Positions 2,783 through 48,267 are shown, numbered from the stretch's first letter. The stretch is 64,000 bases of DNA from Minisyncoccia bacterium (GCA_041742965.1 JBGTNQ010000003.1:12483-76482); one strand, 5' to 3'. Notes: generated by a model from the letters alone, not told the origin. Made by a program: numbers and translations.

Positions 2783-3334
2783 ATGAAATTCTTTTTTACA
2801 AAAACAAAAAATAAAATCAGTTCTTCTCGAGGATTCACCCTTTTGGAGGTTCTTATTGCTATAACTATTTTTATCTTTGCTCTTGTGGCTACCATGACCG
2901 CCGCTAGGAGTGGTCTGGCAAGTGCATACGAGTCTAGAGATCAGGTCATTGCTTTTTATCTGGCCCAAGAAGCAGTGGAGTTTATAAGAAATAAGAGAGA
3001 TACAAACAGTATTTTGAATACAGTTACTCCAACCAACTGGCTTAGTGGCGTCTCTAATCTTTCTAGTGATCCATGTTACCCCGGTAAAGTGTGTCTCATT
3101 GATGTTGTGGCGAACCAGATTACTGCCTGCGCCTCGCCAACCACCTGTCCAAACCTAAGACAAGATGTAAATACAAAAATGTACGGCTACGATTCTTCTT
3201 GGTCTTTAAATCAGTTTAAGAGAGAGGTTAGGGTGCAAAATATTAATGCTGACGAGGTGTCTATGACCGTTCTTATTACTTGGCCAAAGGGAAGTTTTGA
3301 AGTCAAAGAGATAATTTTAAATTGGCAAACTTAA
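2783..3334 (+). CDS. Pilin-like (pseudopilin) protein
   Basis: An internal ATG at 2783 gives MKFFFTKTKNKISSSRGFTLLEVLIAITIFIF; the longer ORF start at 2624 overlaps the preceding gene and is unlikely. Confidence 0.65.
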   Translation: MKFFFTKTKNKISSSRGFTLLEVLIAITIFIFALVATMTAARSGLASAYESRDQVIAFYLAQEAVEFIRNKRDTNSILNTVTPTNWLSGVSNLSSDPCYPGKVCLIDVVANQITACASPTTCPNLRQDVNTKMYGYDSSWSLNQFKREVRVQNINADEVSMTVLITWPKGSFEVKEIILNWQT

Positions 3335-7648: not shown

Positions 7649-8305
7649 ATGGCAGACCCCAAAAAGGACGCAAAACCACCAAAACCACAACCAGTTGAGA
7701 GTCTGATAGGTATAATCTTTGTCTTGATGTTACTCGGCGCCCTTGTCACTAGGATTTTTTCTTTTATTGACGAAGAGCCGGGGGTATCTGAGTTTTTCTC
7801 TCCATCTCGTTTTGGTGATTATTTCAGCCGTCAGTTCTTACCAACCCTACTCGTAATCTCTTATGTATTGTGCTCATTTTTTATATTTGGAATTGTTTGG
7901 TCAATAATGAAGTTAAGAGAAATAAATAAGGAGGTGAATGAGATTTATAAAGAACCGGTTATATTATCGGAAGGAAATTTGGATGATGAAAAAAGTCGCA
8001 GATGGGATAGGGTTGTGTCCCACTTAAATTCTCTAAGCGAAAATGATTGGAAATTTGCAATTATTGAAGCAGATATTATGCTCGGTGATTTGTTGGACAC
8101 CTTGGGATATAGGGGAGACACCATGGCGGACAAGTTAAAAGCAGTAGAGCCTAGTGATTTTATTACCATAGAGTCGGCTTGGGAGGCTCACAAAATTCGC
8201 AATGCCATTGCTCATGAAGGAGCAGATTTTGTTTTATCCGAAAGAGAAGCTAGAAGGATTATCGATCTCTATCGAGCTGTATTCAAAGAATTCGGAGTGA
8301 TTTAG
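7649..8305 (+). CDS. Hypothetical two-TM membrane protein with a C-terminal HEPN-like R-x4-H motif
   Basis: Two hydrophobic helices are followed by a cytoplasmic domain ending in AWEAHKIRNAIAHEG. Confidence 0.5.
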   Translation: MADPKKDAKPPKPQPVESLIGIIFVLMLLGALVTRIFSFIDEEPGVSEFFSPSRFGDYFSRQFLPTLLVISYVLCSFFIFGIVWSIMKLREINKEVNEIYKEPVILSEGNLDDEKSRRWDRVVSHLNSLSENDWKFAIIEADIMLGDLLDTLGYRGDTMADKLKAVEPSDFITIESAWEAHKIRNAIAHEGADFVLSEREARRIIDLYRAVFKEFGVI

Positions 8306-8371
8306 GTTGCACCGAGGCTCTATTTGGGTATAATGTGCCACACAGGCTGTGTTCGGCCAATCAGATGGCGG

Positions 8372-8640
8372 GTTGCCGTACGCACCTGATCATTACAAAA
8401 GTAGAGTATGGTCAATATAGCGGGTTGGAGGAGTAGTACCTCGCAAGGGGACAAAGACTCATAACCTGCACAGGTTAAGTTAATTAAGTGTATATTTAGA
8501 CATAGCGGGTTGCCGTACGTACCTGATCATTACAAAAGTAGAGTATGGTCAATATAGCGGGTTGGAGGAGTAGTACCTCGACAGGCTCATAACCTGTAGG
8601 CATCAGTGCAATTCTGATACCCGCAACAAGTATGAAAATA
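8372..8640. repeat. Tandem direct repeat (2 x ~135 bp) in the tRNA-Met leader region
   Basis: The unit gcgggttgccgtacgNacctgatcattacaaaagtagagtatggtcaatatagcgggttggaggagtagtacctcg...ctcataacctg occurs twice in tandem and is followed by a perfect 16-bp hairpin (8630-8672). Confidence 0.6.
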
Positions 8641-8697
8641 ATCCTGCCTTTGCAGGATTATTTTCATAAGGTATATTTGATGGGTTCGGTATTTCTT

Positions 8698-8770
8698 GAC
8701 GGGGTAGCTCAGTTGGTAGAGCACAGGACTCATAAGCCTGGGGTCGTGGGTTCAATCCCCACCTCCGTCA
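8698..8770 (+). tRNA. tRNA-Met/Ile2 (anticodon CAU)
   Basis: Cloverleaf: acceptor GACGGGG/CUCCGUC, D-arm GCUC-AGUUGGUA-GAGC, anticodon loop CUCAUAA, T-arm GUGGG-UUCAAUC-CCCAC. G1-C72 is paired, so this is not an initiator. Confidence 0.8.
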
Positions 8771-8866
8771 CCGGCAATAAATCTGCATCTATGCGGGTTG
8801 ATATAAGTAATTTGCATGGGTGTTTTATTGCCTCTAGGTGTTGAATCTGTTAGTTTATATCGTATT

Positions 8867-8941
8867 GCGGGCGTAGCTCAATTTGGTTAGAGCACTCCCC
8901 TGTCACGGGAGAGGTTGCCGGTTCAAGTCCGGTCGCCCGCG
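8867..8941 (+). tRNA. tRNA-Asp (anticodon GUC)
   Basis: Acceptor GCGGGCG/CGCCCGC, anticodon loop CUGUCAC, T-arm GCCGG-UUCAAGU-CCGGU. Confidence 0.9.
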
Positions 8942-9135
8942 CATAAAACAAACTGTCCCGGACGCGAAAGCGTTCGGGCAGTATTGTTTTACAGTGACGC
9001 CGGACTTGAAAGACGGAGGCCGCGAAGCCGTCCTGAGCTTTGCGAAGGGCGTGGCCGAGTCCGGGCAGGAGCCACTTATGACCCCGCTATGGCGGGGGAA
9101 TTAGTGAGCTGACGCCAAGTCCGGTCGCCCGCGCA
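8942..9135 (+). other. ~190-nt GC-rich structured element abutting the tRNA-Asp 3' end, ending in a 19-bp duplicate of that 3' end
   Basis: GNRA-capped hairpins (e.g. CCCGGACGC-GAAA-GCGUUCGGG and CCCCGC-UAUG-GCGGGG). The direct repeat aagtccggtcgcccgcgca occurs at 8925-8943 and 9117-9135. A near-identical copy lies at 10939-11129. Confidence 0.6.
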
Positions 9136-9214
9136 TCGAGAAAAACAGGGCTAAAAACATAGCTCTGTTTTTTATACTGACGGGATTTTGGAACCGGTGA
9201 TATACTTTTGGTGT

Positions 9215-9889
9215 ATGGAAATAAAACAATATGACTGTTTTGAAGGCGAGAGCGTAGATTTAACACAGGCAGAAGCTGTATTAAGGGAAAAACCTGATGT
9301 TATTATTCTCGAAGCACCTGCAGATAGTGAAAAGGACCCTTCTACAATCTTTAATAACTATGAAGTATATGAAAAACCAATTGAGATGGTCCTTGAATAT
9401 CAGAAGAATTTAAGAGAATCCTCAAGTAAATTTAAATGGGTTGAGTCAGATATATTCCTGTATGAAAACATTGTTAAGTTATGGAAGGAAGGGCATAACG
9501 TAGACATTTATAGAGTCGATGCGCCTGCAGAATTGTTGAAATTATCAACGGACTCCACCTGGCCGGGTTATAGAATGACTGAACCTCTTAGGAAGGGGGT
9601 GGAGTTTAAGTGGTGGGTTTACGTCTATATAAGGGAAACAATAATGACTAAAAATATCAGATTTATTTTAGAAGTTCCTCGCTATTCAGATAGAAAGATA
9701 TTGATTTTTTTGCAAAAATTTCACTGGGACAATGTTAGGTTTAGATTAGAAAATAACGAGGATGACATATTTAGCTATTATTTCTCAGATTTCAAGGATG
9801 TCAATAAAATTAATATAAACGATAAGGTGCAGGAATTAGAAAACGACATTCTCTACAAATATTGGAATAAGGTGAAAGGTCTAAGTTAA
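9215..9889 (+). CDS. Hypothetical protein (cassette 1), paralog of 49070..49738
   Basis: Approximately 45% identity over the full length to the ORF at 49070..49738 (KPDVIILEAP/KPDIIFFEAP, KLWKEGHNVDIY/TLWKNGHDIKLY, FLQKFHWDNVRF/FLQKFHWHNVKF). The start is placed at the ATG aligned with the paralog and with the conserved spacer promoter. Confidence 0.6.
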   Translation: MEIKQYDCFEGESVDLTQAEAVLREKPDVIILEAPADSEKDPSTIFNNYEVYEKPIEMVLEYQKNLRESSSKFKWVESDIFLYENIVKLWKEGHNVDIYRVDAPAELLKLSTDSTWPGYRMTEPLRKGVEFKWWVYVYIRETIMTKNIRFILEVPRYSDRKILIFLQKFHWDNVRFRLENNEDDIFSYYFSDFKDVNKININDKVQELENDILYKYWNKVKGLS

Positions 9890-10032
9890 TTTTAAGTTCT
9901 GGTAACTTTTATTGACATGTATAAAAAATGTAGTCTGAAGTTGTATTGCATTGGTAAAAACAGAGCTAAAAATATAGCCCCGTTTTTCATACTGTAGTGA
10001 TTTTTTGGTTCTAACGGGGTATACTTTTTTGT

Positions 10033-10482
10033 ATGACCATCCCCACTCACATTCTTCTCGGTGCCATTATTGGGAAAGTTACAGGGAATTATGCACTGGC
10101 AATTGGAGCGTCTGTTATTCCCGACATTGACCACTTTGGCTCATATATAAAAAGTGGGGTTATAAAAAAGCCGAAAGTTTTTTGGGACACAATCACTAGT
10201 GCAGACGACCCTCACGGAGACCAGAGAGGTATACTGCACAATTTATTTTTCTTTCTAATTATTTCTGCTCTGTTTTATATTTTTTTACCCAAAATCGCTC
10301 TTGTCTTGGTTTTGGGATGGTTTGGGCACATTATTTTAGATGCCCTAGATAAGTCAGATTACTGGCCGTTCTACCCTAACAAAAGTGTCAACATACGAGG
10401 GCTCATCAAATATGCTTCTGCTCAAGAGCTCATGTTCTTTCTGGCTCTATTAATTATATTTATAACCCTGTTCTTCTTATAG
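10033..10482 (+). CDS. Membrane protein, YdjM/DUF457-like putative metal-dependent hydrolase (cassette 2)
   Basis: TM helices with conserved His/Asp residues (PTHILLGAII...PDIDHFGSY...GHIILD). Confidence 0.45.
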   Translation: MTIPTHILLGAIIGKVTGNYALAIGASVIPDIDHFGSYIKSGVIKKPKVFWDTITSADDPHGDQRGILHNLFFFLIISALFYIFLPKIALVLVLGWFGHIILDALDKSDYWPFYPNKSVNIRGLIKYASAQELMFFLALLIIFITLFFL

Positions 10483-10515
10483 GAGGCATTTTAGAACCAG
10501 TGGTATACTTTTAAA

Positions 10516-10908
10516 ATGGACTCTACCAATGAATTTTCTTTTATATTAAAACCCTCAGAGCATGGGGTTGGAGTTTTTGCCACGCAGGATATTAAACAAG
10601 GAACACACCTGAGATTATTTGGGGATAATGAAGTGGTTAATTTGAAAGCATTAGAAAGAGAGAAAGAATCTGTTCCCGAGTTTTATCAAGAACATTGTTT
10701 AAATAGGGGAGACAAACTTATTTGTCCTCAAGATTTTGGACACATGCACATTGGTTGGTATTTAAATCACTCTAATAATTACAACGCTATTCCTGATGAA
10801 GTATATGAATGGTATGCATCAAGAGATATAAAATCTGGAGAGGAGATTCTTGTTGACTACAATACACTTGATGAACCAGACGAGTCTAAAGCTGATTACT
10901 ACAAATAA
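10516..10908 (+). CDS. SET-domain protein (putative protein-lysine methyltransferase) (cassette 3)
   Basis: GVGVFATQDIKQGTHL, NHSNNYN (NHSxxPN-like) and GEEILVDY motifs. Confidence 0.7.
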   Translation: MDSTNEFSFILKPSEHGVGVFATQDIKQGTHLRLFGDNEVVNLKALEREKESVPEFYQEHCLNRGDKLICPQDFGHMHIGWYLNHSNNYNAIPDEVYEWYASRDIKSGEEILVDYNTLDEPDESKADYYK

Positions 10909-10938
10909 TAGTTCTAACCTCCTCCACCAAGTTGCGCA

Positions 10939-11129
10939 TAAAACAAACTGTCCCGGACGCGAAAGCGTTCGGGCAGTATTGTTTTACAGTGACGCCGGAC
11001 TTGAAAGACGGAGGCCGCGAAGCCGTCCTGAGCTTTGCGAAGGGCGAGGCCGAGTCCGGGCAGGAGCCACTTATGACCCCGCTATGGCGGGGGAATTAGT
11101 GAGCTGACGCCAAGTCCGGTCGCCCGCGC
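10939..11129 (+). other. Second copy of the ~190-nt structured element, internal to the cassette array
   Basis: One mismatch relative to 8944-9135. It is preceded by the degenerate tRNA-Asp 3'-end-like motif CCACCAAGTTGCGCA and ends in GCCAAGTCCGGTCGCCCGCGC. Confidence 0.6.
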
Positions 11130-11200
11130 TGATGAGATTTTCACCATTAAATCCTTTAACCATAAGGATTTTTTGGTTCTAACCTGGTATTATTTTAGGT

Positions 11201-11728
11201 ATGAAATATATGAAGTTTATTAGAATTTTTCTCCTAGTTTTAATTGTTATTGGATTGGGACTGATTGCTACTCAAAAAATGTGGGTACCGAAGCTTGTAA
11301 CTCAAATATTGAACCGAGGGGACATGGTAGTTAACAAAGAGATTATTCCAGATGAGGCATCAGCCTTCGGAGATATATCTGGAGATAATAAGATTGTTGT
11401 TTCTGGAGTGTATAGTTACAATCAATTTATTGGCACTCTTCCATCACTAGATTTTTACGTTGATGAAGTCACCGCACATTTGATACCCCGAGGATTTGAT
11501 GATGATCGAATTCCGTGGTTTGGGATTTTAAATCAGGAGAAGGCTATGGCCTTATTGGGGATTAGTTCTAAAGAATTAGGAGGGAATATCTGTGAGATTA
11601 AAGGGAATGCAGAAATAGAGATATCAAAATACTTAATCTATCGAGGGGAGTCCGAGGGAAAAGATGGAGCGACTCTAACAAAATTGTTGAAGGTTAGCCC
11701 TCCCACCTATATCAATTGTACAAATTAG
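11201..11728 (+). CDS. Hypothetical membrane-anchored/secreted protein (cassette 4)
   Basis: N-terminal TM/signal MKYMKFIRIFLLVLIVIGLGLIA; no recognisable domain. Confidence 0.5.
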   Translation: MKYMKFIRIFLLVLIVIGLGLIATQKMWVPKLVTQILNRGDMVVNKEIIPDEASAFGDISGDNKIVVSGVYSYNQFIGTLPSLDFYVDEVTAHLIPRGFDDDRIPWFGILNQEKAMALLGISSKELGGNICEIKGNAEIEISKYLIYRGESEGKDGATLTKLLKVSPPTYINCTN

Positions 11729-14077: not shown

Positions 14078-14530
14078 ATGGCTAACCCAAAAAAACCGCG
14101 CCCCAAGTGTCCGACATGTGGCAAAGAGCCTGCTCGGTCATTCTACAAATATTGTAGTAATAGATGTCAGCAGGAATATCAGCGTGCGCGTTATCTTAGG
14201 GAATGGAAGGCCGGGAAAAGAAGTGGCCTGCAAACTATAGGAATTGTCACGGTGACAATAAAACGTTACCTTAGAGAAAAATTCGGGGATAAATGTTGTA
14301 TTTGTGGTTGGTCGAAAGTTAACCCAAAAACCGGGAAGGTCCCATTGGTCGCTGACCACATTGATGGGAATTGGCGCAATAATGCAGAAGAAAACCTTCG
14401 TTTGATATGTCCAAATTGCGATGCATTATTGCCAACGTTTTCCGCGCTAAATAAAGGTAATGGCAGGGAAAATAGGGCGCCAAGAAAAAGAACTCAAGAA
14501 GCGACGGAGTTTTTAAAAAAGCCAAAGTAG
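14078..14530 (+). CDS. HNH homing-endonuclease-like protein
   Basis: CPTCG...CSNRC zinc ribbon followed by CCICGWS...VPLVADHIDGNWRNNAEENLRLICPNCD, an HNH motif with a flanking CxxC pair. Confidence 0.8.
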   Translation: MANPKKPRPKCPTCGKEPARSFYKYCSNRCQQEYQRARYLREWKAGKRSGLQTIGIVTVTIKRYLREKFGDKCCICGWSKVNPKTGKVPLVADHIDGNWRNNAEENLRLICPNCDALLPTFSALNKGNGRENRAPRKRTQEATEFLKKPK

Positions 14531-14591: not shown

Positions 14592-14874
14592 CTAGTTTTG
14601 TTTGTTTTAATGATAAAAATCTGTATTCTGTAGGAACGGGGGAGCAAGCCTTCTCCGTCAGAGAATTGGCCCGACTCAATCGGCAATAAGCACAGAGGGC
14701 TCTGTTCGTGGTCCATATTGAACGGTGGTCTGTGCACTGCTCGGCGGGATTAGACACCTCGCTAAAATCAATTGGATTGGCAGTACGTCCGCAAGGTCGA
14801 AACTGTCTCAAGACACGGACAGGGGGCGCCGATACACCACTCGGCGTCCCTTTTCATTTGCTATAATCACACTT

Positions 14875-45507: not shown

Positions 45508-48267
45508 ATGTCAGAATATTTTAAATTTACTACCCCAGAACAGGAGCTTGAATACCTACGCTCCAAGGTTCTTGAAGTCGAAAAGAAGCTGGAGAGCAAT
45601 GAGATACAACCTGTGCGAGAATCTGTAATCAGAGAGTCTGTTGCAGAATTTAAGAAAGAAGCCGGCATTGGTGCTCCGGTCGCAAATGCTTTGGAGGTCG
45701 AAAAAGATGCAGAAGTTATTCTGGAAAAACATCAGGAAGCCCAGCTCCAGGAAATGGTAGTTTTAGCAGAATCAAAGGGTATTTCCCATGCGCTTGAGGT
45801 TGTTGCGAAGATTAAAAACTGGCAAGCAGAAGACGACTTTCATGCTTTCCTCGTCGAACAAGTGGCTCAAGGCTTGCCGCCCCCTGGAGTAAAAGAAAAA
45901 GGACCGATATATCAAGCCCTTCATATGAAGCTATTTGAGATTCTACTTCCGAAAGAGGTCGGTACAGAAAAATCTTTAGGGGATCTCATAGGAAGTATGG
46001 AGCAGTTTTACGCTGGGCTACTTTCTATAGCAGGCGACAAAAATGACAAGGTTAGCCATTTAGCTTTTGAGATTGCTAACCCTAACGGTGAAGAAGACAC
46101 TCGAGTTTTTGTTTCTGTACCCGAATTAAGGGTTGATCTTTTTAGCAAACAACTTTTAGCAATTTTTCCTAAAGCACGACTTATCGACAGGAAGAGCGAT
46201 TACAATATTTTCAATGAATTAGGTACAACTCTGGGTGTTTCCGCGACATTGTCTAGTTCCCCCGCCTATCCTTTAAAGACTTCTGAAGATTTTTCTTCAG
46301 ATCCGCTCAACGTAATTTTAAATGGGTTTTCCAAAATACCTAAGGTTGGCGCGGGAGCCACTTTGCAAATTATTTTTAAGCCGATTGGAGATACTTATGC
46401 AAAAAAATTCGAGTCTGCTTTAAAGAAAATTGAAAAAGGAGAGAACCCCAAAGAAGCCTTGCGAGACGATGGGGTCGCAATGGAATTGACACGCTCGATT
46501 GGAGAAGCTTTCTTTAGTAAAAAGAAAGAAAAGAAAGAAAAGGAAGATAAACCCATAGTTATAGATCAAGGGATTGTTGGAGCAATTAAAAAGAAGCTCC
46601 AAAGCCCAATAGTTGAGACTAATATCCGTTTTGCGACTTCAGCCCCTACCGAAGAAGAGGCTCGTCAGTTAATTCACAATTTCACTTCTACCTTCAATCA
46701 ATTCGAGAATCCCAGCAGGCAGAATATTACTTGGACTGAAGCGAAATCTTCTGGGTGGCTCGCACTTAAAGACAATGATTTCTACAAGTCATTTATTTTT
46801 CGACTGTTTAAAGATACCGAAAAGATACCGCTTAATCTTTCAGAACTTTCTACAATTCTTCATTTCCATACCGAAGCATTATCTTCCAGCTCGACTCTCA
46901 GTCGCACAAAATCAAAAAGCGCACCGCCACCTGTAGGTCTTCCAGAAGCCGGCACCCTCTTAGGCATCAATTCATTCCAGGGAGTTGAGAAAAGTATATA
47001 TATCGCTCCAGAGGACCGCCTAAGGCATTTCTACGCTATTGGTCAGACTGGTACAGGTAAGTCCACCTTGCTCAAAAACATGATTATTGAGGACATTAAA
47101 AATGGCGAAGGGGCTTGTTTCATTGATCCGCACGGTTCTGATGTGATGGAAATTCTTGCCAATGTACCCAAGGAAAGGTTGGAAGACGTGATCTACTTCG
47201 ATCCCGCTTCTACTGAGCGACCGATGGCCTTGAACATGCTCGAATACGATCCCCACTTTCCTGAACAGAAGACCTTTGTCGTTAATGAACTTTTCTCTAT
47301 TTTCCAGAAGCTCTATGGCGGTAGCCCAGAATCCATGGGGCCCATGTTCGAGCAGTACTTCCGTAACGCCACGATGTTGGTGATAGAAGACCCAGAGAGT
47401 GGTTCAACCCTACTTGACGTCTCTCGGGTAATGTCTAGCAAGGAGTACCGCGACTTGAAGCTTTCCAGATGCAGGAATCCGATAGTTGTCCAGTTCTGGA
47501 GAGAGATCGCTGGTAAGGCTGGAGGAGAGGCCGCACTCGTTAATATGGTTCCCTACATCACATCAAAATTTGACGTTTTCTTGGCCAATGACATTATGCG
47601 TCCGATCATCGCACAAGAGAAATCCTCATTTAATTTCCGAGAAATTATGGATGGAAAAAAGATTCTTCTGGTAAATCTTGCCAAGGGCCGTCTGGGAGAT
47701 ATCAATGCTAATCTTATCGGTCTCATTTTGGTTGGTAAAATCCTAATGGCCGCACTTTCTCGTGTAGATGCGCTTGGTCAAAATCTTCCTTCCTTCTATT
47801 TATACATAGATGAATTCCAGAATATTACTACCAACTCAATCGCCACGATTCTTTCCGAAGCTCGAAAGTATAAGCTTTCGCTTACAATTGCCCATCAATT
47901 TATTGCGCAACTTCAGGAAGATATTAAAAATGCTGTTTTCGGCAACGTGGGTACAATTTGTTCTTTCCGAGTTGGCCAAGATGATGCTGAATATCTACAG
48001 AAACAGTTTGCTCCAACTTTTGCAGCACAAGATATTGCCAGCATCGATAATTTTAATGCTTATATAAAAATGCTTATTCATGGCAAGCCAGTTGAGCCCT
48101 TTGATATCCGCCTGATGCCAAGACAAACCGGAGATCAGTCAAATATCGAAATTGCTAAGCAGGTATCCTCGGTAAAATACGGACGTGATAGAGCTGAGGT
48201 AGAAGCTGCGATTATGGCTAAGTACCAACCCTTGCAGGAAGTAGTTTCCAGCTCTCAGATTCTTTAA
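45508..48267 (+). CDS. FtsK/HerA-superfamily ATPase, type IV secretion-like (VirD4/TraG coupling-protein-like or VirB4-like)
   Basis: Walker A AIGQTGTGKSTLL and Walker B LYIDEFQN followed by ARKYKLSLTIAHQFIAQL...FGNVGTICSFRV; a ~470-aa N-terminal non-ATPase domain. Confidence 0.6.
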   Translation: MSEYFKFTTPEQELEYLRSKVLEVEKKLESNEIQPVRESVIRESVAEFKKEAGIGAPVANALEVEKDAEVILEKHQEAQLQEMVVLAESKGISHALEVVAKIKNWQAEDDFHAFLVEQVAQGLPPPGVKEKGPIYQALHMKLFEILLPKEVGTEKSLGDLIGSMEQFYAGLLSIAGDKNDKVSHLAFEIANPNGEEDTRVFVSVPELRVDLFSKQLLAIFPKARLIDRKSDYNIFNELGTTLGVSATLSSSPAYPLKTSEDFSSDPLNVILNGFSKIPKVGAGATLQIIFKPIGDTYAKKFESALKKIEKGENPKEALRDDGVAMELTRSIGEAFFSKKKEKKEKEDKPIVIDQGIVGAIKKKLQSPIVETNIRFATSAPTEEEARQLIHNFTSTFNQFENPSRQNITWTEAKSSGWLALKDNDFYKSFIFRLFKDTEKIPLNLSELSTILHFHTEALSSSSTLSRTKSKSAPPPVGLPEAGTLLGINSFQGVEKSIYIAPEDRLRHFYAIGQTGTGKSTLLKNMIIEDIKNGEGACFIDPHGSDVMEILANVPKERLEDVIYFDPASTERPMALNMLEYDPHFPEQKTFVVNELFSIFQKLYGGSPESMGPMFEQYFRNATMLVIEDPESGSTLLDVSRVMSSKEYRDLKLSRCRNPIVVQFWREIAGKAGGEAALVNMVPYITSKFDVFLANDIMRPIIAQEKSSFNFREIMDGKKILLVNLAKGRLGDINANLIGLILVGKILMAALSRVDALGQNLPSFYLYIDEFQNITTNSIATILSEARKYKLSLTIAHQFIAQLQEDIKNAVFGNVGTICSFRVGQDDAEYLQKQFAPTFAAQDIASIDNFNAYIKMLIHGKPVEPFDIRLMPRQTGDQSNIEIAKQVSSVKYGRDRAEVEAAIMAKYQPLQEVVSSSQIL

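Follow-up and report, generated by a model that had tools for sequence, protein, structure and literature searches.

Small folded inserts carrying direct and inverted copies of the tRNA 3' end downstream of tRNA genes in Paceibacteria-like bacteria

In a 64,000-nucleotide (nt) stretch of DNA from a Minisyncoccia bacterium (GCA_041742965.1 JBGTNQ010000003.1:12483-76482; the whole stretch is referred to as the window), the tRNA-Asp gene is immediately followed by a GC-rich element (8942-9135) that ends in a copy of the tRNA's own 3' end. This arrangement raises the question of whether the element is inserted DNA or a structured RNA belonging to the tRNA transcript. An earlier note on this DNA had named both options, a miniature tRNA-targeting integrative element with an attL/attR-like duplication or a structured RNA that is co-transcribed with or processed from the tRNA. 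According to the analysis described here, there is about an even chance that the element represents a non-autonomous insertion element with tRNA 3' ends as its targets, one that leaves the tRNA intact and is transcribed by read-through. Together with its relatives at tRNA 3' ends in Paceibacteria-like bacteria, it forms a family of small, folded inserts without genes that has apparently not been described before; no description of such an element was found in full-text literature searches.

The tRNA-Asp(GTC) gene (8867-8941, plus strand, with its end at 8941/8942) is intact as judged by ARAGORN and by Rfam (tRNA, 69.2 bits); it lacks an encoded CCA and is followed by CA. The element located 3' of it comprises 192 nt with 60% GC and ends in an exact 20-nt repeat of a tRNA segment, here termed T, which extends from C56 of the T-loop through the 3' strand of the T-stem, the 3' strand of the acceptor stem and the discriminator and includes the CA. 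The 20-mer CAAGTCCGGTCGCCCGCGCA occurs at 8924-8943, in and just past the tRNA-Asp gene (native T), and again at 9116-9135 (downstream T), confirming as an exact repeat what had been described as a 19-bp duplication. The GC content is 0.60 at 8951-9159 and 0.61 around a second copy of the element (10946-11146), compared to 0.406 for the whole window. Between the two T segments, all on the plus strand, lie a long GAAA-capped, terminator-like hairpin with a U-rich tail (H1, 8944-8991), identified in the fold and by a terminator-scan match at 8957-8978; an 11-nt inverted copy of the T-loop and the T-stem 3' strand (T', CCGGACTTGAA, 9000-9010), which had previously been missed; and a GC-rich multi-branch core (9011-9115) with the motifs GAA-AGACGGAG ... 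CGAG ... GCTGACGC, identified in the folds and in the family alignment. A terminator-like hairpin with a U-tract follows directly 3' of the downstream T (9141-9173), as recognized by eye; the folded whole transcript also shows it as a hairpin. A similar arrangement was seen by eye after the tRNA-Gln element described below, and a weak one after the second copy; none of the hairpins 3' of the downstream repeats was called by the terminator scan, which covered 8300-11400 only. The element had also been characterized as full of GNRA-capped helices. One true GNRA loop is present (GAAA, 8966-8969), whereas the UAUG and CGCGAA loops are not of this type.

A BLASTN comparison of 8942-9135 with the window returned the element itself and a second copy at 10937-11129, with 192 of 193 bases identical (99.5%). 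The single internal difference that had been reported was found by direct comparison to be T at 9052 versus A at 11047, and the mismatch at 11047 breaks a G.U pair; the unit itself begins at 10934 (GCGCA) and not, as had been stated, at 10939. It is preceded by CAAGTT (10928-10933), which looks like a T segment that has lost about 10 nt, and the putative degenerate left T of copy 2 would read CAAGT-T-GCGCA (10928-10938, plus strand). H1 (10939-10986), a spacer, T' (10995-11005) and the core (11006-11110) were assigned from BLASTN, and a 19-mer of the repeat forms the T segment at the end (11111-11129). No tRNA is present upstream of copy 2. The earlier count of three copies was too high for the window, which contains two: the third tRNA-linked element, after tRNA-Gln (18834-19031), is a relative of differing sequence. 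In public data, the three intervening genes are carried by a single contig, which terminates within both copies as a repeat would lead one to expect. The near-identity of the window pair and a tandem arrangement of elements on a further contig (L045, see below) give the copies the look of recent or repeated events.

T' is the exact reverse complement of TTCAAGTCCGG, the T-loop and T-stem 3' strand of the tRNA, and an antisense match of this length (11 nt) was reached in 2 of 200 shuffles (p = 0.01). Folded alone as a 193-nt RNA, the element has a predicted free energy of -96.3 kcal/mol (z = -5.95) that none of 200 shuffled sequences attained, in agreement with the earlier view of a structured element; in this predicted fold, the stem that closes the multi-branch domain (P1) consists of T' paired with the downstream T. 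In the predicted fold of the transcript containing both tRNA and element (-155.7 kcal/mol, z = -8.4), the native T pairs with T' and encloses H1, and the 5' half of tRNA-Asp pairs with the downstream T. As both T copies are identical, the two pairing arrangements are nearly equivalent. The plus strand was more stable than the minus strand in all seven elements tested, by 1.3 to 16.5 kcal/mol. We also considered that T' might be the leftover 5' half of a second tRNA. This was ruled out by the element in a related genome (L016), where the acceptor part of T', GCGAGCG, is the exact complement of the 3' strand while the 5' strand of the tRNA reads GCGGGCG, and T' is therefore an inverted copy of T.

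The occurrence of T' and T was then surveyed for all 38 tRNAs of the window and seven related genomes, comparing the 250 nt downstream of each tRNA with its own 3' part. The relatives were retrieved via GatA homologues, and eight related genomes retain the order of gatA, a 218-amino-acid (aa) open reading frame (ORF) and the tRNA cluster. Matches of at least 11 nt in antisense orientation were found at 8 of the 38 tRNAs and a direct repeat of at least 11 nt at 6, while upstream controls never exceeded 8 nt; member cases were equalled by 0 to 2 of 200 shuffles. The pattern is far above chance. In the window, T' and the T repeat measure 11 nt and 20 nt (19 nt scored) at tRNA-Asp, and 12 nt (CAGGGACTCGAA) and 15 nt at tRNA-Gln. 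Among the relatives, the corresponding lengths are 13 nt (GGCGAGAATCGAA) and 21 nt at tRNA-Thr(cgt) of L012, the smallest member with about 110 nt for insert and T repeat; 11 nt and 16 nt at tRNA-Thr(cgt) of L015; and 11 nt plus GCGAGCG, split by an extra hairpin, and 19 nt at tRNA-Asp of L016. The T repeat is decayed at tRNA-Met of L012 (T' of 12 nt), tRNA-Asp of L012 (14 nt, TGATGGGTGCTGAC), tRNA-Asp of L014 (18 nt, CGGTCGATGGGACTTGAA) and tRNA-Asp of L006 (10 nt); at tRNA-Met of L014, T' is decayed and the T repeat measures 11 nt. T' complements the local tRNA, including the unusual T-loop of the L012 tRNA-Asp, which it matches exactly; the exception is L006, where T' and T mismatch the current tRNA.

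Elements were located at tRNA-Gln in the window, at tRNA-Asp, tRNA-Thr and tRNA-Met in five related genomes and on one unrelated contig, with the recurring architecture of a hairpin, T', a conserved three-way-junction core and T. Their sizes are about 100-190 nt, and no gene lies inside. The element after tRNA-Gln(CTG) (tRNA at 18762-18832, plus strand; ARAGORN, Rfam) occupies 18834-19031 on the same strand and consists of hairpins, T' (18922-18933), a core ending in GTGAC (18996-19000) and T (19001-19031), which holds a 14-nt hairpin insert and is followed by CCA and by the terminator-like hairpin (19039-19066, by eye). The CCA is encoded on this downstream repeat and not on tRNA-Gln itself. 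The unrelated contig, L045 (IMG/VR UViG 3300033463_005745, 2800-3319, minus strand), carries tandem elements with repeated CAAATCCCTCCC segments. It has 50% GC, unlike the clade of the window, and adjoining ORFs that appear cysE-, galE- and cdd-like from their translations, which were not searched; no tRNA is present in the stretch examined. The family therefore extends outside this Paceibacteria clade. A further copy lies upstream of tRNA-Thr(ggt) in L012 (10107-10256), where a dead tRNA copy consists of nt 1-20, an element resembling the tRNA-Gln type that ends in GTGAC and contains ACTGAGC, antisense to the D-arm, and nt 22-32; the core can therefore also sit in a D-loop.

The core of the element after tRNA-Gln defines a type, here type-1, that is also represented by tRNA-Met of L012, tRNA-Met of L014, tRNA-Asp of L016 and L045, with a partial copy upstream of the L012 tRNA-Thr(ggt). 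Between T' and T, its invariant motifs are GAA-RRNCGGAG, hairpin A, CGAG-N3-5-GGGTCGYG, hairpin B and AUYUGUGAC; the 15-mer CGAGGCGGGGTCGCG and TGTGAC are common to the tRNA-Gln element, the L012 tRNA-Met element and L045. In the type-1 alignment (A3), 90% of the cells are paired, compared to 34-53% with the partners slid, and none of 500 shuffles reached the observed pairing or covariation score. Six of the seven pairs in hairpin B change on both sides, unrelated stems substitute for one another in hairpin A, and helix P3 (GGTCGCG/TGTGACC) is conserved in sequence with one invariant G.U pair. The tRNA-Asp element of the window is a more elaborate relative of type-1. Its 3' half is kept in L006 (GatA 77% identical), with 31 and 25 identical nt on either side of one hairpin that is swapped from CCCCGC-UAUG-GCGGGG in the window to GCGAAGC in L006; the T segments of the two differ at 3 positions. 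By these models, the core helices behave like an RNA fold in the tRNA sense. The earlier proposal of a structured RNA co-transcribed with the tRNA is thus backed by the preferred sense of the fold in seven of seven elements, the invariant G.U pair and the compensatory changes; the terminator-like hairpins that would go with it were seen by eye only.

As a further possibility, the element might be intron-like or a ribozyme, with its insertion point in the T-loop between U55 and C56; T' would then be an internal guide across the ligated junction, the upstream T part of the insert and the downstream T the true 3' exon. T' indeed complements the T-loop and T-stem across the 55/56 junction, following the logic of a group I internal guide, and the minimum-free-energy fold of the whole transcript corresponds to a tRNA with the element as a giant T-loop insertion. 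The core ends in ...GTGAC right before C56 in all type-1 members, beside the invariant G.U pair, and tRNA group I introns are abundant in Patescibacteria (PMC13011429). We nevertheless regard this explanation as very improbable. Rfam contained no matching intron or ribozyme model at E-values up to 10, all group I cores are far larger than the core of the element, and T' is Watson-Crick paired throughout, with no U.G at the putative splice site; moreover, the upstream tRNA is complete, which makes splicing unneeded, and no truly interrupted tRNA was seen. More specifically, the group I family RF00028 gave no match at E-values up to 10 on 8800-11250 or 18740-19080, and self-cleaving ribozymes (hammerhead, HDV-like, twister, pistol, hatchet) had no Rfam match at the same limit. 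The Rfam search as a whole returned no family besides tRNA, either at gathering thresholds or at E-values up to 10. A hammerhead, suggested by a three-way junction with GAA, GUC and CUGAC, was rejected, as GUC lies inside helix P3, stem III would not pair and Rfam gave no match. No bulge-helix-bulge motif indicative of an archaeal intron or a split tRNA was evident.

The second RNA-based explanation is that the element is not mobile and serves as a cis-acting trailer of the tRNA transcript. Native T, T' and downstream T would then form a three-part switch, in which T' pairs either with the 3' half of the tRNA, which would block cloverleaf formation or tRNA maturation, or with the downstream T, which would release the tRNA; a protein or ligand bound by the conserved core would determine the balance. 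Another option is that the product would be a stable small RNA with a tRNA-like 3' end. The two near-equivalent conformers of the whole-transcript fold, the preference of the folds for the tRNA sense together with the covariation, the terminator-like hairpins 3' of the downstream T of copy 1 and of the tRNA-Gln element (by eye, not called), and the presence of the element at tRNA-Asp in five of the eight genomes are all in line with such a function; so is the T' of L012, which follows the atypical T-loop as though pairing were maintained. Nonetheless, copy 2 has no upstream tRNA and is still almost identical to copy 1, many orthologous tRNAs lack an element, the cores at tRNA-Asp differ among relatives while the same core is found at different tRNAs, and T' and T of L006 no longer match the current tRNA. 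In addition, H1 is terminator-like and would stop most read-through. A trailer function in place of mobility therefore appears unlikely, though it deserves serious consideration. A plain intrinsic terminator or repeat was rejected; H1 fits, but this leaves unexplained about 140 nt beyond it, in which T', the covarying helices and the T repeat lie.

Comparison of the same tRNA genes between genomes provided evidence for insertion. The tRNA-Asp site is empty in L015, L018 and L019; tRNA-Gln carries a full element in the window, a reduced one in L015 and none in L012; and at tRNA-Thr(cgt), L012 and L015 have an element whereas the site is empty in L018 and L019. The core types at tRNA-Asp differ between relatives. 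Within L012, the tRNA-Asp and tRNA-Thr elements have about 40 of 42 core bases in common (by eye, alignment A4), whereas their T' and T are unrelated and match in each case the element's own tRNA. Near-identical cores with wholly different T' and T indicate that these segments are renewed from the target at insertion and not by point mutation. Downstream of the T of the tRNA-Gln element, the sequence CCA-AUAC is the same as after the empty tRNA-Gln of L012, which is a weak match.

The L006 locus points in the same direction. The fossil T repeats in this genome correspond to the tRNA-Asp type of L016 (CCCATCGCTCGCG), while the present tRNA-Asp is identical to that of the window at 76 of 76 positions, with the tRNA-Met genes of L006 differing from those of the window at 2 and about 12 positions. 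On sequence grounds, the discrepancy between the T fossils and the resident tRNA-Asp fits incoming DNA that would have displaced the resident 3' end. The flank 3' of the T of copy 2 resembles the flank of the L006 remnant over about 60 nt by eye, although alignment A5 did not align the two. Because of this resemblance, copy 2 (10934-11129) is probably the older site, in which case copy 1, beside tRNA-Asp, would be a recent re-insertion or a product of conversion.

Displacement of this kind, and a direct repeat from the T-loop to the tRNA end, could also have been left by a classical integrase. T would then represent the att core. The element would be what remains of an attP arm, or a cis-mobilizable attL-attR mini-element, once cargo and integrase have been lost. 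Islands with their crossover in the T-loop reportedly have a direct repeat of this extent as the usual identity block, and the small-gene array 3' of tRNA-Asp is punctuated by T or degenerate T remnants in both the window and L006, where the L016-type T fossils next to a resident tRNA-Asp of the window type would be the trace of a displaced 3' end. However, no tyrosine or serine recombinase is encoded among the 40 scanned ORFs of the window, elements of about 100-190 nt with the same conserved core occur at four tRNA species, and the inverted target copy, G.U pairs, strand-specific stability and compensatory changes indicate an RNA or single-strand fold and not protein-binding arm sites. We therefore consider integrase remnants improbable. 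The idea of a miniature tRNA-targeting integrative element consequently survives in part: flanking direct repeats, empty sites, the same core at different tRNAs and two near-identical copies speak for it, while a classical attL/attR island is at odds with the lack of a recombinase, the small size and the inverted target copy, which att sites leave unexplained. The trailer and integrase explanations are not fully exclusive of an inserted element, which may also act on tRNA maturation.

The array itself is a variable series of unrelated small genes, including a 223-aa ORF, YdjM, a SET-domain protein and a 175-aa ORF, and no protein is common to the surroundings of the elements, as the ORFs downstream of tRNA-Asp are unrelated across five genomes. 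Each small gene after tRNA-Asp is preceded by a module TTTTGGTTCTAAC-N3-5-GGTATACTTTT that ends 4-8 nt before the ATG (9178-9215, 9993-10032, 10487-10515 and 11168-11200) and is present in L006 as well. From its sequence, the module looks like a repeated promoter giving rise to near-leaderless mRNAs.

Read as a non-autonomous insertion element, an integrated copy comprises in order an intact tRNA whose last segment is T (from the T-loop to the discriminator, plus 1-2 nt), H1, T' as an inverted copy of 9-18 nt of T, the core as a conserved three-way junction, and T; beyond the downstream T, the tRNA's own flank would resume, starting with the terminator-like hairpin in the Asp and Gln copies of the window. 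Duplication of T would leave the tRNA whole, and pairing of T' with the downstream T would let the insert form a closed domain on read-through transcripts. The element would be, or would have been, mobile with the help of an enzyme acting in trans. Its target would be the T segment of a tRNA gene or transcript, presumably recognized by base pairing with T', and both T' and T would be renewed from the target at each insertion. Formally, a small circle carrying T might integrate, the element with its own T copy might insert between U55 and C56 (after the GTT of the T-loop), or insertion might occur at the tRNA end with a target duplication of 16-21 bp; the three routes would yield the same product and hence the same sequence outcome. 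T' usually begins just 3' of the U-tract of H1, a position suggestive of a snap-back or template-switching step, though the palindrome is interrupted.

Several points weigh against an insertion element. No transposase, integrase, reverse transcriptase, TnpB or HUH enzyme was identified by Pfam among the 40 ORFs of the window, and how both a direct and an inverted target copy would be acquired by insertion is unexplained. H1 may be borne by the element or may be the native terminator of the tRNA: in L012 it is particular to each locus, whereas in the window the duplication of the element includes it, and GAAA-capped hairpins with differing stems occupy its position after tRNA-Asp in L012, L014 and L016. 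Conservation of the core motifs might stem from an old functional RNA instead of from mobility. Support for the flank being the native one of the tRNA is thin, consisting of the CCAATAC in common with the empty tRNA-Gln site of L012. Finally, about a dozen members were seen in 9 genomes in all, namely in full or decayed form in 7 of the 8 syntenic relatives and on one unrelated contig, and exact-word scans of public collections yielded no further members. Exact 34-mer and 20-mer scans returned none in viral contigs and only 3 chance matches in genome and metagenome collections. A degenerate core pattern gave 120 matches in viral contigs, mostly by chance, of which one real member, L045, remained after filtering; tighter core patterns gave no members beyond L045.

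A more far-reaching version of the insertion reading is that the element belongs to a new class of mobile DNA, nucleic-acid-guided and self-templating. An RNA core of about 75-110 nt would be mobilized via the read-through tRNA transcript, T' would pair with the T-loop and T-stem, and the target would be copied twice, inverted and direct; a minimal T-loop intron or ribozyme would be a sub-variant. Such an element would hop among Asp, Gln, Thr and Met tRNAs without destroying them, and the perfect local T' and T alongside near-identical cores would be explained. We put this forward as a tentative and rather doubtful proposal. A tRNA as primer was rejected as an origin of T: both a retroviral-type primer-binding site on the minus strand and reverse transcription primed by mature tRNA are contradicted by the repeat, which copies the genomic ...GCG-CA and not the mature ...GCG-CCA, and by the better folding of the plus strand.

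Among known systems, tRNA-targeting integrative elements, which also regenerate their target, are the closest in working. Islands and cis-mobilizable elements at tRNA 3' ends likewise have a flanking repeat of the tRNA 3' end from the T-loop, an intact tRNA and tandem accretion beside the tRNA; they differ from the elements described here, which have no integrase among the 40 window ORFs (all neighbours included), a size of about 100-190 nt, the same core at four tRNA species, an internal inverted copy of the core site and a conserved fold of RNA type. Integron attC sites resemble them in that an inverted T'/T pair brackets a variable structured centre and in that elements lie between small gene cassettes after a fixed site, but R''/R' boxes (RYYYAAC / GTTRRRY) are missing, no IntI is encoded among the 40 ORFs, T' and T change with the tRNA, and the G.U pairs favour top-strand RNA. 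By analogy, the omega-RNA of IS200/IS605 elements (TnpB) and the gene-less PATE derivatives might be compared, as these are small, hairpin-rich and strand-specific. The guide layout would correspond as well, a conserved scaffold being followed directly by a stretch of 16-21 nt that exactly matches the DNA past the right end, and the universal GTT of the T-loop would lie 5' of the matched segment like a target-adjacent motif. IS200/IS605 elements make no target duplication, an occupied site would here stay a perfect target, and neither TnpA (Y1 HUH) nor TnpB had a Pfam match in the 40 ORFs, nor omega-RNA a match in Rfam. The bridge RNA of IS110 was rejected, as its guides are short and flank a core dinucleotide and no duplication is made.

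Three further systems share single traits. R2-type retroelements might be likened to the present elements in co-transcription with a target RNA gene, target-derived ends and repeated insertion at one site; here, in contrast, no reverse transcriptase was identified, the host is a bacterium, and the elements are very small and have no coding sequence. T' and T close the fold like the inverted repeats of a retron non-coding RNA, but no reverse transcriptase gene adjoins any copy. The nearest paper found describes group I introns at position 35/36 of tRNA-Asp and tRNA-Asn in Patescibacteria (PMC13011429). They occur in the same phylum and in the same tRNA (Asp), are GC-rich and structured and have a guide-like antisense to the exon; in contrast to the elements described here, which lie 3' of an uninterrupted tRNA, they interrupt the anticodon loop at 35/36, match RF00028 and self-splice. 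A eukaryotic example is given by the Dada DNA transposons, which are described as targeting tRNA and small nuclear RNA genes (PMC8869645). Judging by that description, they have in common with the present elements that mobile DNA inserts specifically in small-RNA genes such as tRNA genes, while being eukaryotic, protein-coding and transposase-driven. Dada carries a fragment of its target gene; neither a structured non-coding core nor an inverted copy of the target is known for it.

The DNA of the window is chromosomal and belongs to Patescibacteria (Paceibacteria-like). It encodes NAD-dependent DNA ligase, GatA, MurB, GroEL, RNase J, ribonucleotide reductase, P-type ATPases and a peptide chain release factor with PCRF and RF-1 domains, for which the label prfB derives from synteny and size. 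The named GatA homologues in the match list belong to Paceibacteria/Parcubacteria-group Patescibacteria (60-63% identical), and the closest matches (up to 90%) carry no taxon name. A phage origin, suggested by the repeated promoters and the tRNA cluster, was rejected, since ligA, gatCA, murB, prfB, groEL and the ribonucleotide reductase genes are chromosomal and a phage database matched only the tRNAs. The cluster 3' of gatA and the 218-aa ORF also contains two tRNA-Met genes (8556-8627 and 8698-8772). Upstream of the first of these, a tandem partial duplication (8360-8555) contains a leader of ~55 nt twice, opening with a 9-nt copy of the tRNA 5' end (GCGGGTTGC...), and a truncated 5' half of tRNA-Met, its anticodon arm carrying an insert (8419-8475), comes after the first leader unit. 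An ORF of LAGLIDADG type with weak Pfam marks separates tRNA-Met from tRNA-Asp in L019 (12666-13334) and may represent the insertion of an intron or homing endonuclease into this same cluster of tRNA genes. L016 (12345-12480) and L018 (after the first tRNA-Met) share a conserved structured stretch, AAGCACTCGTGGGTGAC...GTCACCC(C)ACGGGATGTG, located 3' of a tRNA-Met with an unusual GTGCAAT T-loop.

Elsewhere in the window, a 150-aa ORF with an HNH motif (14078-14530; Pfam HNH_3, E = 1.8e-4, below the curated cut-off) ends within the first bases of tRNA-Thr (14521) and looks like a free-standing homing-endonuclease-like gene abutting a tRNA. From tRNA-Thr(cgt) to the likely start of the prfB-like gene (about 14875) extends a GC-rich, apparently non-coding stretch of ~270 nt (14600-14870) that had no Rfam match. 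Long GC-rich leaders are located at the same place in L015 (about 9540-9720) and L012, and in L018 and L019 the prfB-like gene begins right after tRNA-Thr(cgt). The window also encodes a YcaO-nitroreductase fusion protein of 729 aa (20052-22241) and a 919-aa protein with a weak match to TraG/VirD4-like coupling proteins of type IV secretion (45508-48267).

If the elements are indeed insertions, the reduced genomes of Patescibacteria would carry tiny elements that colonize tRNA 3' ends without harm to the tRNA. A direct and an inverted target copy together are unexplained by any element class compared here, and the guide-like T' with the conserved RNA fold suggests a target choice by base pairing that could be redirected between tRNAs, which would be of mechanistic interest and perhaps of use as a tool. 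The elements break assemblies, and leftover fragments of tRNA 3' ends can mislead predictors of islands and att sites. When read through, the elements may affect the maturation of the tRNAs that they follow.

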